Shown here in pieces: positions 24,144 to 29,791 of a stretch of 64,000 nucleotides of DNA (its first letter is position 1; each line of letters begins with the position of its first letter). The DNA comes from Candidatus Microgenomates bacterium (lineage in GTDB: Bacteria; Patescibacteriota; Microgenomatia; UBA8517; JACQJR01). The DNA lies in assembly GCA_016204995.1 (NCBI GenBank), contig JACQJR010000001.1, positions 92,548 through 156,547 of the forward strand, written 5' to 3'. A program made the translations under genes and the position numbers. The notes beneath the pieces are model-generated. The model did no database searches. It saw nothing but the letters and a program-made list of their open reading frames with translations, and had not been told where the DNA came from.

Positions 24144-25253
24144 CTAGAGAAATTCTTCCTCTTTTTCTTTTTTCAATTTATTTACCAGTTCTTTAACTTT
24201 TTCTGTCTGATTTTTATCAGCAATTAGGATAGCATCTTTAGTCTCAATCACAATTATATCCTTTAAACCAATTGTGGCAATTAACAGCTTTTCTGTCTGT
24301 ACCAAAGAATTCTCCGTCTCTAAATTTAACCAACGGCCTCTGCCGTTTAATTTCAAAGTCACATTTCCCTGATGGTCTTTTTTACTTAAAGCCCAAACCA
24401 CTTCCCAATCCCCCACGTCATGCCAATCAAAATCAGCCGCCAGCATCAAGAAATTTTTGGCTTTTTCCGAAACTGCATAATCAATGGAAATAGTTTCTAT
24501 TGACCGATAGGTTTTGGCAATCACTTCTCGCTCGTTAGATTGACCAATGGTTTGTTCCACCATCTCCAGACCATGACCAATTTTCGGAGCGTGTTTTTTG
24601 AGAGCCGCCATTAAAGTATCTGCTCGCCAGACATAAAAATTACCGTTCCAATAATACTGACCAGAAGCAGTAAATTTTTTGGCCAGAGTCAAGGGTGGTT
24701 TCTCTATAAACTTATCTACTCGGTAAACTGCCTTACCATCTATTCTATGTTCTATTTTGCCAGTTTTAATATGGCCCATGCCTACGTGAGGAAAATCCGG
24801 TTTCTTACCAATGGCTACCAACTCTTTAGTTTGATCTGCTGCTTCGGCTGCTACTTTTAAAGTATGGATGTAGGCTTCTAGGGGCTTGACTACATGATCC
24901 GATGACTCGTTAACTATCACAGCGTTGGGATCAATACTATGAATATAGGCTGCGGCCAAACCATGGGCAATCGCTGTTCCTCTAGCTTCCGGCTCTACTA
25001 AAATATGCTCCTCGCTCACTTTAGGCAATTCTTTTCTCACTTCTCGGCCGTAAAGCGGATTAGTAGTAACTATCCAAATTCTCTCCCAAGGCACTAATTC
25101 ACTAAATCTAGCAGCAGCCTGCTGTAATAAAGTTTGGTTGCCAAATAATTTAATAAATTGCTTGGGATTTTTCTTACGGGAGAGAGGCCAAAGCCTGGTA
25201 CCGCCGCCGCCGGCTAAAATGACAGCGAAAAGATGATCCTTAAGATTACTCAT
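24144..25253 (-). CDS. manC: Mannose-1-phosphate guanylyltransferase (nucleotidyltransferase only, no PMI domain)
   Basis: AVILAGGGGTRLWPLSRKKNPKQF signature of GDP-mannose pyrophosphorylase. Confidence 0.8.
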   Translation of the reverse strand: MSNLKDHLFAVILAGGGGTRLWPLSRKKNPKQFIKLFGNQTLLQQAAARFSELVPWERIWIVTTNPLYGREVRKELPKVSEEHILVEPEARGTAIAHGLAAAYIHSIDPNAVIVNESSDHVVKPLEAYIHTLKVAAEAADQTKELVAIGKKPDFPHVGMGHIKTGKIEHRIDGKAVYRVDKFIEKPPLTLAKKFTASGQYYWNGNFYVWRADTLMAALKKHAPKIGHGLEMVEQTIGQSNEREVIAKTYRSIETISIDYAVSEKAKNFLMLAADFDWHDVGDWEVVWALSKKDHQGNVTLKLNGRGRWLNLETENSLVQTEKLLIATIGLKDIIVIETKDAILIADKNQTEKVKELVNKLKKEKEEEFL

Positions 25254-26343
25254 TAATTAGTCTTTTAAATTTTTGCACAAACATTCTTTGCGAAAATCTT
25301 CTCGTATGGGCCTGAATAATTTTAACATCATAATTTTCTCTCTTAAAATTTTTGATTGTGCGCGCTAAACTCTCCACAGTTTGCTCTGTAAAAAATTCTC
25401 CGGTTTTCCCGGCTACTACCGTTTCTAAGGCTCCGCCGCCTTTATAGGCAATGACTGGCGTACCGCACATCTGCGCCTCAACGGCCACTATACCAAAATC
25501 TTCCTCTTGGGGGAAGATTAAAACCTGTGCCTTTTTATAGTACGCAACAAGTTCACTATCTGTCAAATGACCGGCAAAGTAAATATTGTTCTTGGCCATT
25601 TTTGATAATTTTCTATATTGGCTGCCTGTTCCCACAATTACCAGAGGCCAACCTAATTTATTAAAAGTTTTAACCACCAAATCTATTCTTTTATAAGATA
25701 CGAGTCGAGAAACCACTAAGAAATAGTTTTTAGATTTTAGATTTTGGATTTTAGATTTCTTACTAAACTCTAAGCTCAAACCTCTAACATCTAAATTCAC
25801 CGGCGGGTACACCACCTTTGACTTGCGTCCATAGTATTTATCTACTCTATTTCGCACCGCCTCGGAAATCGCCACCATCTCATCCGGCCTTTGCGCCGCC
25901 ATCTTATCCCAACTTTTTAGATATGAAAGCAGCCATTTGATGAAGAAACGCTTGATTCTATTGTGGAAATAAATTTCGTGTCCGCTCCATAGATATCTGG
26001 TGGGGGTCAAACAATAACAAATATGGCGGGTGCCGGGGTGAGTAATAATTCCCTTGGCCGCCTCACTGGTAACGGAAATTACTAAGTCATATTCAGAGAA
26101 ATCAAATTGTTCAAAGGCCAGGGGCATCAGCAGAGCTAGCCATTCATGATGTTCCCGAATCAAAGGAATTTTTTGTAAAAATGAAGTATAAACCTGCGGA
26201 AAAACTTGCGCCCACGGTGCATATTTGGCAGAATAAACCGAGGTATAAAGCGGAGCCTTAGGAAATATGTCATGTAGGGCCAGTAATACTCTTTCAGCAC
26301 CACCCCACTTATTCACCCGATCATAAACAATCGCAACTTTCAT
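25246..26343 (-). CDS. Glycosyltransferase family 4 (GT-B)
   Basis: C-terminal EDFGIVAVEAQMCGTPVIAYKGGGALETV (E-x7-E region). Contains an in-frame tandem heptamer repeat at 25731-25759. Confidence 0.85.
   Translation of the reverse strand: MKVAIVYDRVNKWGGAERVLLALHDIFPKAPLYTSVYSAKYAPWAQVFPQVYTSFLQKIPLIREHHEWLALLMPLAFEQFDFSEYDLVISVTSEAAKGIITHPGTRHICYCLTPTRYLWSGHEIYFHNRIKRFFIKWLLSYLKSWDKMAAQRPDEMVAISEAVRNRVDKYYGRKSKVVYPPVNLDVRGLSLEFSKKSKIQNLKSKNYFLVVSRLVSYKRIDLVVKTFNKLGWPLVIVGTGSQYRKLSKMAKNNIYFAGHLTDSELVAYYKKAQVLIFPQEEDFGIVAVEAQMCGTPVIAYKGGGALETVVAGKTGEFFTEQTVESLARTIKNFKRENYDVKIIQAHTRRFSQRMFVQKFKRLINE
25731..25759. repeat. Tandem heptamer repeat (TAGATTTT/AGATTTT/GGATTTT/AGATTT) in-frame inside the GT4 gene
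   Basis: tagattttagattttggattttagatttc. Minus-strand translation gives KIQNLKSKN in the inter-domain linker. Confidence 0.6.
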
Positions 26344-27449
26344 TCATTTGCCACTTTATTGTAGGTTGATAAAGTTTCTTGAACCATTTTCTTCCAACTA
26401 AAACTGGCAGCTCTTTTATAACCCAATCTAATTTTTTGGGCAAGGAGTTTTTTGTTTGATAAAGTTTCCTTAATAACTTTTGCTATATCTGCCGGATCGT
26501 TTTGATTAAAAAAAGTGGCAGCTTCGCCGTAGACTTCATGAAAGACTGGGATGTCAGAAACTATCACTGGACAGCCCAAATTCATCGCCTCCAGTGGCGG
26601 GATACCAAAGCCTTCCATTCGCGAAGCAGTCACTGAAGCGGAAGCAAAATAATACCAGGCACCAATTTGATTGTTATCCACTGCCCCTATTATTTCTACC
26701 TTATCCTGTAAATTTTGCTTTTTAACAAACTCCTCTATTTTAGGATAGAAAAATTTATCGCTGCCCACTAGCACTAATTTAAAATTAGGAATATCCTTCA
26801 TTGCCAAAACTAGACTTTCTACATTTTTATGCGGATGAACATTACCCACATATAAAATATAAGGCGCGAGCTTTTTCATTTGATTAAATTGACTCCCGGT
26901 AAACTTTTTTCTGATATCATCAATTTCTCCAGACTCATAAGTGACCACGATTTTATTTGGATCTACCGAGTAATGATCAACAATTTCACTTTTAGCGTCA
27001 TTGGATAAAGTAAAAATAGTGCGGGCGCGTCTAGTGGCAATCCATAACACGACGTGATATCCCAGTCTTTTAATTAAATAAAACCAATACGGGAGTGTAG
27101 AAGCTTTGCCAGTTTTATAATGGTCAAAAATTAAATCGTGAATTGTCACCACAAATTTTTTAGGATAAAAAATAGGGAAAGAAAAATAGGGAAAATGCAG
27201 TAAGTCTAAATTTTCGCGGTTAAAAACTTGCGGCAGATAAACTTGCTCAGCTAAAGTATGCCAATGAATATTAGTTTCAACTTTGCGCCACTTGGAATTA
27301 GGCATTTCTAAAGTGTCAAATTCCTGCTTTCCTAAAAACCAGACATATTCATTTTCTTGATCCAGTTCGGGTAGATATTTAAATAAACTCCTAATATACC
27401 GTCCCACCCCCGTCTCATTCCATAATCTACCATCAATACCAATCCGCAT
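26340..27449 (-). CDS. Glycosyltransferase family 4 (GT-B)
   Basis: EGFGIPPLEAMNLGCPVIVSDIPVFHEV motif. Confidence 0.85.
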   Translation of the reverse strand: MRIGIDGRLWNETGVGRYIRSLFKYLPELDQENEYVWFLGKQEFDTLEMPNSKWRKVETNIHWHTLAEQVYLPQVFNRENLDLLHFPYFSFPIFYPKKFVVTIHDLIFDHYKTGKASTLPYWFYLIKRLGYHVVLWIATRRARTIFTLSNDAKSEIVDHYSVDPNKIVVTYESGEIDDIRKKFTGSQFNQMKKLAPYILYVGNVHPHKNVESLVLAMKDIPNFKLVLVGSDKFFYPKIEEFVKKQNLQDKVEIIGAVDNNQIGAWYYFASASVTASRMEGFGIPPLEAMNLGCPVIVSDIPVFHEVYGEAATFFNQNDPADIAKVIKETLSNKKLLAQKIRLGYKRAASFSWKKMVQETLSTYNKVANE

Positions 27450-27577
27450 GAATTAAGTATAGCAAATTTACCTTAATTGCTTTAACAATTCAAATCGCTT
27501 GAACATACCTCCAAGGTCTCTCCTTGGAAACTCACAGGAGTGCTCTTGCTGGTTAATCTAATAAAAGTAATTTTATC

Positions 27578-27607
27578 TTGTAAATAAGAATAAAAATTGG
27601 TAAAAAT
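27578..27607 (+). promoter_or_regulatory. Candidate sigma70-type promoter TTGTAA-N17-TAAAAAT immediately upstream of the Bro-N/DinD-like gene (leaderless or near-leaderless start)
   Basis: ttgtaa at 27578-83, 17-bp spacer, taaaaat at 27601-07. Candidate starts are ATG 27608 or GTG 27612. Confidence 0.3.
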
Positions 27608-27611
27608 ATGA

Positions 27612-28448
27612 GTGGTGGAAGAAACAACTAAAATAGCTGTTTTCAAAGGCAAAGAAATTAGGAAAACTATTTATAAAAATGAATGGTGGTTTTCCATTGT
27701 TGATATTGTTGAAGCGTTAACCGGAACAGATAGACCAAGAAAATACTGGAGTGATCTCAAAAAAAAGTTACTTAAAGAAGGTTATGCTGAAGTGTCCGAA
27801 AAAATCGGACAGTTGAAGTTAGAAGCCCCTGATGGAAAGTTAAGAGAAACAGACTGTGCTAATACCGAGACTATATTTAGAATAATTCAAACTATTCCCT
27901 CACCTAAGGCTGAACCATTTAAGAGGTGGTTAGCAAGAGTGGGTTACGAGAGAATCCGAGAAATAGAAGATCCGGAGCTAGCCACTAAAAGAACCAGGGC
28001 GTTATATAAAGCCAAGGGATATTCTGATGCTTGGATTGAAAAACGAATGAGGGGAATTGAAATAAGGGAAACTTTAACTGATGAATGGAAAAAACGAAAA
28101 GTAGGCGGAGAAACAGAATATGCCATATTAACTGCTGAAATATCCAAAGCTACCTTTGGAATGACACCCAGCCAGTATAAAAAGTTTAAGAATCTAAAAA
28201 GAGAAAATTTAAGAGACCATATGAACGACCTTGAATTAATTTTCTCCATGCTTGGAGAAGCCTCAACAACAGAGATAGCTAAAAATAAGGATGCTCAAAG
28301 ATTTGTCCAAAATAAAAAAGCTGCGCAAGAAGGGGGAACTGTGGCAGGCAACGCTAGAAAAGAGCTGGAAAAAAGAAGCGGTCAAAAGGTTTCTATCAAA
28401 CAAAACTACCTTACCAAACCACAAAGTAGTAGATTACTAGAAAAGTAA
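27612..28448 (+). CDS. Bro-N domain protein, DinD (DNA-damage-inducible protein D)-like
   Basis: N-terminal IAVFKGKEIRKTIYKNEWWFSIVDIVEALTGTDRPRKYWSDLKKKL fits the Bro-N consensus. About 278 aa, like E. coli DinD. The only plus-strand gene in a long minus-strand run. GTG start in the track; start uncertain. Confidence 0.6.
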   Translation: MVEETTKIAVFKGKEIRKTIYKNEWWFSIVDIVEALTGTDRPRKYWSDLKKKLLKEGYAEVSEKIGQLKLEAPDGKLRETDCANTETIFRIIQTIPSPKAEPFKRWLARVGYERIREIEDPELATKRTRALYKAKGYSDAWIEKRMRGIEIRETLTDEWKKRKVGGETEYAILTAEISKATFGMTPSQYKKFKNLKRENLRDHMNDLELIFSMLGEASTTEIAKNKDAQRFVQNKKAAQEGGTVAGNARKELEKRSGQKVSIKQNYLTKPQSSRLLEK

Positions 28449-28464
28449 GACTAAACCTTAAAAA

Positions 28465-28851
28465 CTACTTTCTTATCAAAGGTATAGCTTCTTTGGGAAT
28501 TTTGCGCACTTTAATAGTTTTCATTCCTAGTTGTTTAGCTTTAACTAAACGATGTAGTCCATCCAATAATAGCCATCTATTCTTCCAAAACATAATATCT
28601 AATGGATATGAAAGATCAGACTTCATTGTTCTGTCAAATTCTTCTTTATACCCTTTTGGATTTGCCAAGACTTCATTAGGAGTTAAATCGTAAAATCCTC
28701 CTGGTTTATCCCAAAAGGGAATATCAAAATGCCATTCAAGTTCGGAAATATCCATTTCTTCTACTGGCAAATCCAATGCCCAAACTTTTTCCTCACTCCA
28801 ATGAAAATCAAATCCTACTTCTTCAATTATTTTTGGCAATTTTTTATCCAT
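28465..28851 (-). CDS. ParB/sulfiredoxin-like nuclease-domain protein (hypothetical)
   Basis: C-terminal LLDGLHRLVKAKQLGMKTIKVRKIP resembles the ParB N-terminal domain DGxHR...G...IP motif. 128 aa; convergent with the Bro-N gene. Confidence 0.45.
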   Translation of the reverse strand: MDKKLPKIIEEVGFDFHWSEEKVWALDLPVEEMDISELEWHFDIPFWDKPGGFYDLTPNEVLANPKGYKEEFDRTMKSDLSYPLDIMFWKNRWLLLDGLHRLVKAKQLGMKTIKVRKIPKEAIPLIRK

Positions 28852-28894
28852 GTAGCTAACCCGCGTTATATCATATATTCATATATGATATATC

Positions 28895-29791
28895 TCACCA
28901 AAACAGTAATCTGTATTTCTCTAGAATCCAGATACCGGTCCAGACTAGCCAAAGAATTGGGGCAGGGTATTGGCCGACATAATGCTTTTTATAAAAAATC
29001 CGCATGGCTTCTACTGATGCCAAAGCTGCTCTTCCTCGTGTACCACGAGTAGCAGATGAAACTGATTTTGTCTGTTTTTTGACCCCGGAGGAAATGCCTC
29101 GGTAATGTAAAATAGACACTGTTGGCACATACATAATTTTCCAGTTAGATTTTTTTAAACGATAGCAAAAATCTAAATCTTCTCCATACCAAAAATAATC
29201 CTCATCCCACCAACCAACCTGCTCGCCCGCCTCGCGTCTAACTATCATAAAAGCACCGGTTAGGGCATCAATTTCATGAATATTATGGCGGCTCATATAG
29301 CCAAGAGTGTAGCCGGAAAAAAGCCGCGACTTGGGGAATAAATTTTCTAAACCAAAAAAGTGGCAGAAAGCGTTCCAGGGGGTGGGGAAACCACGATGAG
29401 CTCCATCATCTAAACCGCCGCCAGGAGCATTAACTTGACAGGTGGCCGCCCCCACTTCACTGTTTTCATCCATAAATTTAATCATGGAAACAAAAGTATT
29501 TTTTTCTACCTCTGTATCAGGATTTAAAAATAAAATATAACGGCCTTTAGCTCCTGGAATTGCTACATTATTCCCTTTCGCAAATCCAAGATTATTTTTA
29601 TTCTCTATAATTTTGAACTTTTCACTTTGCACTTTTAACTCTTCTATCGATCCATCAGTTGAGGCGTTATCAGAAACAATTATCTCCCAGGAATATTTTC
29701 CAGCTACTGATCTTTTAATTGATTGAAGACATTTAATAATAAAATCTTTAGCATTATAATTAAGAATAATAATTGATAGGTCAATACTCAC
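28895..29791 (-). CDS. Glycosyltransferase family 2 (GT-A)
   Basis: LSIIILNYNAKDFIIKCLQSI...IIVSDNASTDGS with DxD-type motifs. Confidence 0.85.
   Translation of the reverse strand: MSIDLSIIILNYNAKDFIIKCLQSIKRSVAGKYSWEIIVSDNASTDGSIEELKVQSEKFKIIENKNNLGFAKGNNVAIPGAKGRYILFLNPDTEVEKNTFVSMIKFMDENSEVGAATCQVNAPGGGLDDGAHRGFPTPWNAFCHFFGLENLFPKSRLFSGYTLGYMSRHNIHEIDALTGAFMIVRREAGEQVGWWDEDYFWYGEDLDFCYRLKKSNWKIMYVPTVSILHYRGISSGVKKQTKSVSSATRGTRGRAALASVEAMRIFYKKHYVGQYPAPILWLVWTGIWILEKYRLLFW

Follow-up and report, generated by a model that had tools for sequence, protein, structure and literature searches.

Why does a conserved bacterial glycosylation operon carry two accessory genes between neighbouring glycosyltransferase (GT) genes, and do those two genes belong together? 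In the window, as we call the whole 64,000-nucleotide stretch of Candidatus Microgenomates bacterium contig JACQJR010000001.1 that was analysed (contig positions 92,548 to 156,547), a plus-strand gene with a Bro-N domain, referred to here as the DinD-like gene, converges within positions 27450–28894 on a minus-strand gene for a protein of 128 residues, the small gene. A sequence-only reading of the locus had seen a convergent two-gene islet, perhaps the remnant of a mobile or defence-related module or a toxin/antitoxin-like pair. We find that both proteins are members of known families and that their pairing is accidental. The locus is best explained as a lineage-specific insertion whose two accessory genes are functionally independent and adjoin only at this locus, a reading to which we give a probability of about 0.7.

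Results

The layout of the locus, in window coordinates, is as follows.

26340..27449, minus strand: family 4 glycosyltransferase (GT4) gene, downstream boundary of the insertion
27450..28894, no strand: insertion of 1,445 bp between the GT2 and GT4 genes
27615..28448, plus strand: DinD-family gene, 277 aa, Bro-N domain plus helical DinD-type C-terminal domain (alternative GTG start at 27612)
28449..28464, no strand: gap of 16 bp separating the convergent stop codons, from sequence reading
28465..28851, minus strand: gene for a stand-alone protein of 128 aa, assigned to the ParB/sulfiredoxin fold by AlphaFold2 (AF2), Foldseek and alignment, with a DGLHR motif and no helix-turn-helix (HTH) or other domain
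28895..29791, minus strand: family 2 glycosyltransferase (GT2) gene, upstream boundary of the insertion

Both open reading frames (ORFs) were found at these positions in the ORF listing and on direct reading of the sequence (27612/27615..28448, plus; 28465..28851, minus). Between 231 and 49153 the plus strand has no ORF of at least 110 aa apart from the DinD-like gene, much as the sequence-only reading had it, though the minus-strand run around it extends over ~49 kb rather than ~40 kb. That reading had also begun the gene at 27612; alignment of homologs (GTG GAA GAA ACA in the window versus ATG GAA GAA ACT) makes GTG 27615 the most likely start, giving 277 aa, which is also the length of the NCBI entry, “Bro-N domain-containing protein”. 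The convergent arrangement and its 16-bp gap were correctly described, but of the two only the Bro-N gene is opposite in strand to the GT genes: the small gene runs in their direction and follows GT2 by 43 bp. The pair does split a glycosyltransferase cluster, with Pfam matches to GT4, GT4, a ManC-type nucleotidyltransferase, Bac_transf and DUF4012 on the downstream side of the minus strand and to GT2, GT4, PMT_2 and Wzy_C on the upstream side. As a separate observation, the GT4 genes beside the insertion (25246-27449) have sub-threshold matches (24.4 and 20.5 bits versus a cutoff of 26) to PF20706, “Family 4 glycosyltransferase in conflict systems”, which is also the precomputed label on many GT4 orthologs (P0392-P0410).

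An insertion into a conserved operon

Identity between the flanking GT4 and its closest orthologs is 66-71%, and three of these orthologs, on long contigs (L200, L201 and L202; 66-68%), could be compared at the junction. All three have the gene order of the window, Wzy_C-PMT_2-GT4-GT2-GT4-GT4-ManC-Bac_transf-DUF4012, followed by RecO, and in each GT2 and GT4 are separated by a spacer of only 21, 36 or 51 bp, respectively, with no gene inside, versus 1,445 bp and two genes in the window. With GT2 and GT4 only 21-51 bp apart in these three collinear relatives, we conclude that the glycosylation operon, conserved and otherwise unbroken, received the 1,445 bp as an insertion specific to this lineage. 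The presence/absence polymorphism expected of a genomic islet was thus found, both genes being missing from all three collinear clusters, and the sequence-only reading is supported on this point.

The same comparison bears on the idea that the two are native genes of the glycosylation locus, for example a SerK-like kinase acting on a glycan precursor together with a Bro-N regulator of the operon. The small gene does run in the direction of GT2, 43 bp downstream of it, and kinases with a ParB/sulfiredoxin (ParB/Srx) fold exist, as the SbnI and SerK matches described below illustrate. However, the collinear clusters of the three relatives do without both genes, and an orthologous GT neighbour was found in 0/160 homologous loci, where the only GT matches are 24-26% identical. 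We regard native genes as very unlikely.

A chimeric join made during assembly, falling inside a widely shared Bro-N gene, would also place foreign genes in the operon. Three Logan contigs (L194, L195, L196), each assembled independently from its own sequencing run, match the window at 100% identity, and the right junction, comprising GT2, the small gene and the 3' part of the Bro-N gene, is reproduced in every one. They all stop at 27788-27792, at most 5 bp apart, inside the DinD-like gene, and therefore leave the left junction without independent confirmation. The shared contig ends probably mark a branch of the assembly graph, from strain variation or from k-mers of other copies of the gene. 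Moreover, the insertion is bordered by precisely the GT2 and GT4 genes found next to each other in the relatives, an arrangement that a random chimera would not restore, and we consider an artefact scarcely credible.

Typical signs of a mobile element are absent. No recombinase, tRNA or convincing bounding direct or inverted repeat was found around the insertion, and tRNA and Rfam scans gave 0 matches in the whole window. A target-site duplication was sought at the junctions and none was convincing, the resemblance between TATGATATA(A)C and TGCTATACT being too weak to count. The DinD-like gene has a GC content of 0.369 (0.294 at third codon positions, GC3) and the small gene 0.328 (GC3 0.240), compared with means of 0.381 +/- 0.038 and 0.324 +/- 0.051 for the genes of the window; the former thus lies within 1 standard deviation (SD) and the latter about 1.5 SD away. 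Codon-usage distances of both are usual for genes of such length, and both are a little more AT-rich than their immediate flanks. A recognisable mobile-element remnant, as proposed from the sequence, is accordingly not what is seen here: mobility genes, bounding repeats and tRNA are missing and there is no clear compositional anomaly. By best non-self identity, the DinD-like gene has relatives 84-88% identical, and the small gene 84% identical, in other phyla, whereas the flanking GT4 reaches only 71%, and the close homologs of the small gene cross domains as well as phyla. Since both inserted genes have closer foreign homologs than the core GT4 gene has, they fit horizontally circulating accessory genes, and most likely they came in through one insertion or two at a permissive boundary of the operon.

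The two genes do not form a module

If the two genes worked together, they would be expected to recur together. For the small gene we took the best 80 species-representative genome loci (L014-L093) with up to 10 kb on each side, and for the DinD-like gene 80 metagenome loci with 585 kb of flank in total. A DinD-like gene lies within 10 kb of the small gene in only 1/80 of the former (L067, 2.5 kb apart and not adjacent), and the small gene was found near the DinD-like gene in 0/80 of the latter. Seven contexts inspected one by one showed no pairing, and clustering of neighbours with Pfam confirmation revealed no conserved partner for either gene in the 80 + 80 loci. Homologs of each, numbering hundreds to thousands, occur alone in diverse contexts. 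The two genes form no module and stand side by side only in the lineage of the window.

The toxin/antitoxin and paired-defence readings of the sequence-only account fail because of these co-occurrence counts. In such a system the ParB/Srx-fold protein would act as effector, with the Bro-N protein as its sensor or regulator, and its appeal is understandable: the layout is tight and convergent, both domain types occur in phage or defence contexts, the DinD-like family is a defence candidate in PADLOC, and small ParB/Srx proteins are common in jumbo phages. Yet the counts largely refute it, convergent genes are not co-transcribed, and PADLOC treats the DinD-like family, PDC-S13, as a single-gene candidate, while no PADLOC model matches the small protein. 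A functional two-gene system is, in our view, improbable in the extreme.

Joint arrival without joint function is a different matter. The two genes may have come in on a single piece of a variable or defence island, a decayed mobile-element remnant in which they are co-inherited and not functionally coupled. Their immediate adjacency within one insertion that relatives lack would be explained, and both families are accessory, with serine recombinases (5/80) and tyrosine integrases (4/80) near the small gene and with the DinD-like gene in islands of restriction-modification (R-M) or cas genes elsewhere; the slight AT-richness of both relative to their immediate flanks also agrees. On the other hand, no recombinase, tRNA, direct repeat or terminal inverted repeat marks the insertion, its composition stays within about 1.5 SD of the window genes, the two families almost never share a neighbourhood, and no donor island with both was found. 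Co-acquisition is therefore possible, if doubtful.

The DinD-like protein belongs to the DinD/PDC-S13 family

The Bro-N domain read from the sequence was recovered by the corresponding profile hidden Markov model (HMM), Pfam PF02498, over residues 16-108 (E=2.1e-12, 47.9 bits versus a cutoff of 25.6). The whole protein is matched by the PADLOC model PDLC04920 for PDC-S13, in which residues 4-272 align to profile positions 3-272 of 286 (E=1.1e-117), and by phrog_15286, a family without assigned function, also over its full length (E=2.5e-91). The PHROG “anti-repressor Ant” families gave only weak matches (E=6.5e-5 to 1e-2), and searches of NCBIfam with the protein and of PDB sequences with its profile gave none. 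E. coli DinD contains a Bro-N domain and is itself a full-length PDC-S13 match through another sub-model, PDLC04919 (E=2.4e-121); its residues 122-250 in addition match PDLC04920, the sub-model of the window protein (E=2.2e-16). By these matches of DinD to PDC-S13 models, including that of its C-terminal half to PDLC04920, the description “DinD-like” proved right for both domains at the profile level. The AF2 model is reliable for the Bro-N domain, with predicted local distance difference test (pLDDT) values of about 75-88. Among viral contigs in IMG/VR, only 14 carry full-length relatives, 41-73% identical over the best aligned segment.

A side result concerns annotation. E. coli DinD (L009 2761-3582) matches the PADLOC model “Specificity_I” (type I HsdS) at positions 6-267 of 717 (E=3.1e-114); the model thus includes a DinD-like N-terminal module, and stand-alone DinD-like proteins could be miscalled as HsdS.

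PDC stands for phage-defence candidates, which were nominated by their embedding in BREX, DISARM or type I R-M loci (bioRxiv 10.1101/2024.01.29.577857), and an independent study (PMC9881135) reports type I R-M loci in which dinD-domain genes separate the core genes. In the literature we found nothing on PDC-S13, on Bro-N in Patescibacteria or on ParB/Srx with ASCH, and the PDC supplementary tables hold no PDC-S13 entry. Our own sample agrees with the nominations. Among the 66 metagenome loci with at least 3 kb, R-M or cas genes lie within 4 kb of the DinD-like gene in 19. Its neighbours in the sample include N6_N4 methyltransferases (7), TdeIII/HNH restriction enzymes (5) and type I cas genes (10 loci), with reverse transcriptases (3) and Fic (3) besides. 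In four loci the DinD-like gene is placed between cas4 and cas1, on the same strand, in a type I CRISPR-Cas operon:

L155, 7292-9875: DinD-like gene between cas4 and cas1
L166, 679-4086: DinD-like gene between cas4 and cas1
L190, 1-2251: DinD-like gene between cas4 and cas1
L192, 7097-9856: DinD-like gene between cas4 and cas1

The defence association is real at the level of the family, for the DinD-like gene alone, and is not applicable to the context of the window. Of the phage or defence link drawn from the sequence, the part that holds is therefore the PADLOC candidacy of the family and its 19/66 loci near R-M or CRISPR-Cas genes; neither of the two window genes lies in a prophage context.

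The closest DinD-like homologs are found at 2.5-6 kb from recA in three Microgenomates genomes (L010 2274-6834; L011-L013 1-6879; L198 1500-8444; L199). In L198, lexA adjoins recA, and in both L198 and L199 a gene for an XRE-type HTH protein is directly upstream of the DinD-like gene. Linkage to recA and lexA was considered as a property of the family and dropped, as recA was found within 8 kb of the DinD-like gene in 0/80 metagenome loci; we treat it as lineage synteny.

The small protein is assigned to the ParB/sulfiredoxin fold

The AF2 model of the 128-aa protein is confident (pLDDT 94.6, predicted TM-score (pTM) 0.88) and consists of a single domain. Its top 50 Foldseek matches in the PDB belong mostly to the ParB/Srx superfamily, among them sulfiredoxin, the CTPase domains of ParB and Noc, as well as KorB, SbnI, SerK and PadC (best E=2.4e-3, probability 0.99). 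Predicted viral structures, as collected in BFVD, give a far stronger signal: 14 matches fall below 1e-3, and all of the named ones are “ParB/Sulfiredoxin domain-containing”, with TM-scores normalised to the query (TMq) of up to 0.71; the best, with E=1.4e-6, comes from Pseudomonas phage EL and is 119 aa long, and the TMq of 0.71 belongs to a Faunusvirus protein that superposes over 128 columns with a root-mean-square deviation of 2.7 A. Across 31 aligned homologs, W-L-x-L-D-G-L-H-R-L is invariant and follows P-L-D-I-M. Within it, D96-G97-L98-H99-R100 is the same in all 31 sequences and corresponds to DGVHR in SbnI. When PDB sequences were searched with the profile, SbnI came first (E=0.005, aligned over the region of the DGLHR motif) and sulfiredoxin was much weaker; NCBIfam SbnI (E=0.023, far below its cutoff) and a ParB-like phrog (E=0.19) are fainter echoes. 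The confident model, the DGLHR motif and the fold searches together support membership of the ParB/sulfiredoxin fold, so that the fold named by the sequence-only reading held up in AF2, Foldseek, BFVD and the motif, and failed as a Pfam ParBc HMM match. The word “nuclease” in “ParB-like nuclease” is a family label with no support in the 128-aa protein, and we do not carry it over.

At E<=1e-3, an exhaustive profile search with the family reached 1,104 cluster representatives. Members from bacteria of the candidate phyla radiation (CPR) and from DPANN archaea are 55-79% identical to the window protein, unusually high cross-domain conservation for a small hypothetical protein. DPANN archaea (Micrarchaeota, Woesearchaeota, Nanoarchaeota and Pacearchaeota) account for 13/80 of the best loci, and the rest include many CPR lineages; viral contigs hold only remote, partial relatives of the protein. 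The domain also occurs in fusions, recurrently with ASCH/DUF3850, twice with ATP-grasp, and singly with NUDIX, SDR, peptidase S51, GNAT+HD, EEP, arginase and a nucleotidyltransferase (proteins P0083, P0096, P0242, P0246, P0263, P0288, P0245 and others), some of which may be gene-calling artefacts. Several of these partner domains are frequent neighbours of the small gene as well; its neighbours, counted over the 80 loci, are 12 for NUDIX, 7 each for Ser_hydrolase, histidine phosphatase and the 3' end of secA, and 5 for SDR, beside the recombinases given above. A pathway was sought from the fusion partners and given up, the partners being too heterogeneous.

Promoters, palindromes and the operon boundary

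Four further features lie in the two intergenic regions of the insertion.

27578..27607, plus strand: promoter-like TTGTAA-N17-TAAAAAT, ending 7 nt before GTG 27615, for a putative leaderless transcript
27509..27527, no strand: palindrome TCCAAGG-TCTCT-CCTTGGA, from the palindrome scan, in the divergent GT4/DinD-like intergenic region
28867..28892, no strand: perfect palindrome with 12-bp arms, TATATCATATAT-tc-ATATATGATATA, from the repeat search, in the 43 bp that separate GT2 from the 128-aa gene
27456..27461, minus strand: -10-like TATACT, 6 nt ahead of the downstream GT4 start codon ATG (6-9 nt with the relatives included)

The sigma70-like promoter of the sequence-only reading is present and is retained here for its comparative conservation alone. 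As a consensus match it scores 8/12 and is absent from the promoter-scan list, which has 5 sites in the region versus 5.2 expected. A match of equal quality at the same distance from the start was found in 25% of DinD-like loci and 17% of control ORFs, in 30% of control ORFs with AT-rich upstream sequence and in 30% of shuffles of the window's own upstream region. In six loci of different genomic contexts (the window, L010, L198, L121, L122 and L159), however, alignment A3 shows no variation in the TTG of the -35 element, the A-AAAT of the -10 element, the distance between them or the interval of 6-8 nt before the start codon, against a background of variable surrounding sequence. No Shine-Dalgarno sequence is visible in these six loci, whereas more distant DinD-like homologs (65-70% identity) have clear GGAGG leaders; a leaderless transcript is thus plausible for the subclade. 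Some 55 nt upstream of the promoter, L198 and L010 also have the palindrome CGTTGTA-N6-TACAACG in common.

On the other side of the intergenic region, the TATACT resembles a TATACT-like TATGATATACT in the short GT2-GT4 spacer of the relatives L200 (8980-9000) and L202 (8950-9000). This suggests an internal, possibly leaderless, operon promoter that was kept after the insertion and would allow expression of the operon's downstream half. The right arm of the 28867..28892 palindrome likewise resembles an element, TATGATATAC, of the relatives' GT2-GT4 spacer. A terminator scan returned 0 hairpin-like sites in 27300-29000, including the gap between the convergent genes.

Discussion

We read the insertion as two accessory genes, each with a life of its own elsewhere, that came to lie at the same operon boundary. 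The DinD-family gene is a single-gene cassette, spread very widely and horizontally. In the subclade represented here it seems to move together with a promoter of its own, set 6-8 nt ahead of the start codon, so that the mRNA would be leaderless. In E. coli, dinD is LexA-regulated (PMC6590174), and the regulation of RecA filaments by DinD is mentioned in PMC4457935 with reference to Uranga et al. 2011. By analogy with E. coli DinD, which inhibits post-synaptic RecA filaments, and given the frequent embedding of the family in R-M and CRISPR-Cas loci, the protein is likely a stand-alone modulator in responses to DNA damage or foreign DNA, whose Bro-N domain would bind DNA and whose C-terminal domain would act on a nucleoprotein partner. 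The small gene is probably read through from the GT operon, as it is on the same strand and begins 43 bp after GT2. Its product may be a nucleotide-binding (ATP/CTP) phosphotransfer or NTPase module, probably acting on a small molecule or a protein: the closest solved sequence relatives are the SbnI and SerK kinases and sulfiredoxin, and the neighbours or fusion partners include NUDIX, phosphatases, hydrolases, ASCH and ATP-grasp.

More far-reaching versions can be imagined for each gene, and we mention them as tentative and on balance unlikely. The 128-aa family could be a new nucleotide-dependent enzyme exchanged between CPR and DPANN episymbionts, in keeping with its 55-79% identity across both groups and with its repeated fusion or adjacency to NUDIX, ASCH, ATP-grasp and phosphatase genes. 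The DinD-family gene could be a self-contained single-gene factor, directed against phages or recombination, that inserts as a cassette together with its own putative leaderless promoter, as its 78-88% identity across phyla and its cas4-cas1 or R-M embedding in some loci might suggest. Neither version needs the two genes to act together.

Several results count against the account that we prefer, or against parts of it. At the level of single sequences the resemblance to E. coli K-12 DinD is not significant, either by BLASTP (E=0.1) or by hhalign of profile A2 against the single DinD sequence (E=0.26), although the latter aligns a common LK(K/R)..(L/I)(R/L)DHM...EL stretch at equivalent positions; homology of the C-terminal half is carried by the PADLOC cross-match to PDLC04920 (2.2e-16). 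This helical half is modelled by AF2 with a pLDDT <50, which is unusable. PDC-S13 itself has the standing of a defence candidate. The promoter is indistinguishable from chance as a consensus match in AT-rich DNA, and no LexA box of the nine known classes, the signal proposed as a check on SOS control, occurs in 27450-27614, although the LexA motif of CPR bacteria may differ and lexA is present in the relative L198. For the small protein, a Pfam search returned nothing at E<=1, the ParBc model failing, and the Foldseek scores against the PDB are modest (TMq about 0.4). Finally, the 16-bp convergent adjacency could still reflect co-acquisition in a single event.

The interest of the locus is less in the pair than in what it excludes and makes plain. 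A gene on the opposite strand can be accommodated inside a conserved CPR glycosylation operon, at a GT2/GT4 boundary that in relatives carries a promoter-like element. A very widespread annotation in CPR genomes, “phage antirepressor / Bro-N”, is now placed in the DinD/PDC-S13 family, and the embedding of that family in defence loci, both R-M and cas4-cas1, has been reproduced independently. A fold is assigned to a hypothetical family that has no Pfam model and is common in CPR and DPANN genomes. Should the DinD family prove to be a defence or RecA-modulating factor, the clade described here would offer a compact, highly conserved and probably leaderless example from minimal genomes.

Comparison with known systems

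E. coli DinD (PcsA; CDD PRK11525) is the nearest known counterpart of the plus-strand gene. The two proteins are 274 and 277 aa long, each begins with a Bro-N domain, and each is matched over its full length by a PDC-S13 sub-model, the known family occurring as a single gene in R-M or CRISPR-Cas loci. Unlike E. coli DinD, the window gene has no LexA box of a known class and its pairwise identity is insignificant; unlike the PDC-S13 genes embedded in defence loci, it lies inside a glycosylation operon with glycosyltransferases as neighbours. The Bro-N domain is also common to the phage Bro-N/KilA-N antirepressors (Ant, Bro), and NCBI names some homologs “phage antirepressor protein”. Unlike those, the present gene has no prophage context, either here or in the chromosomal loci that we inspected, and the function of its best PHROG family is unassigned.

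Type II toxin-antitoxin and two-gene defence modules consist of two small, tightly spaced accessory genes, as does this insertion. In contrast to such modules, the window genes are convergent and not co-transcribed, they show no conserved co-occurrence, and the small protein has no PADLOC match.

The small protein itself is closest to the DGxHR branch of the ParB/Srx superfamily, which includes SbnI, SerK, sulfiredoxin, “ParB-like nuclease domain” proteins and the stand-alone proteins of jumbo phages. The predicted fold is alike, the core motif P-[LI]-D-[IV]-M...W-x-[LI]-L-D-G-[LIV]-H-R-L is common to both, and the jumbo-phage proteins are of similar size (119 aa in phage EL). Sulfiredoxin differs in the Cys of its GCHR motif, where the 128-aa protein has Leu98, and SbnI and SerK have a C-terminal domain that it lacks. 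Partition ParB, a CTPase clamp, has an HTH, a C-terminal dimerisation domain and a GERRxR motif, whereas the 128-aa protein has none of these and carries DGLHR instead. The Trp-rich N-terminal region of ~60 residues is specific to the 128-aa family, and its distribution is centred on CPR bacteria and DPANN archaea.

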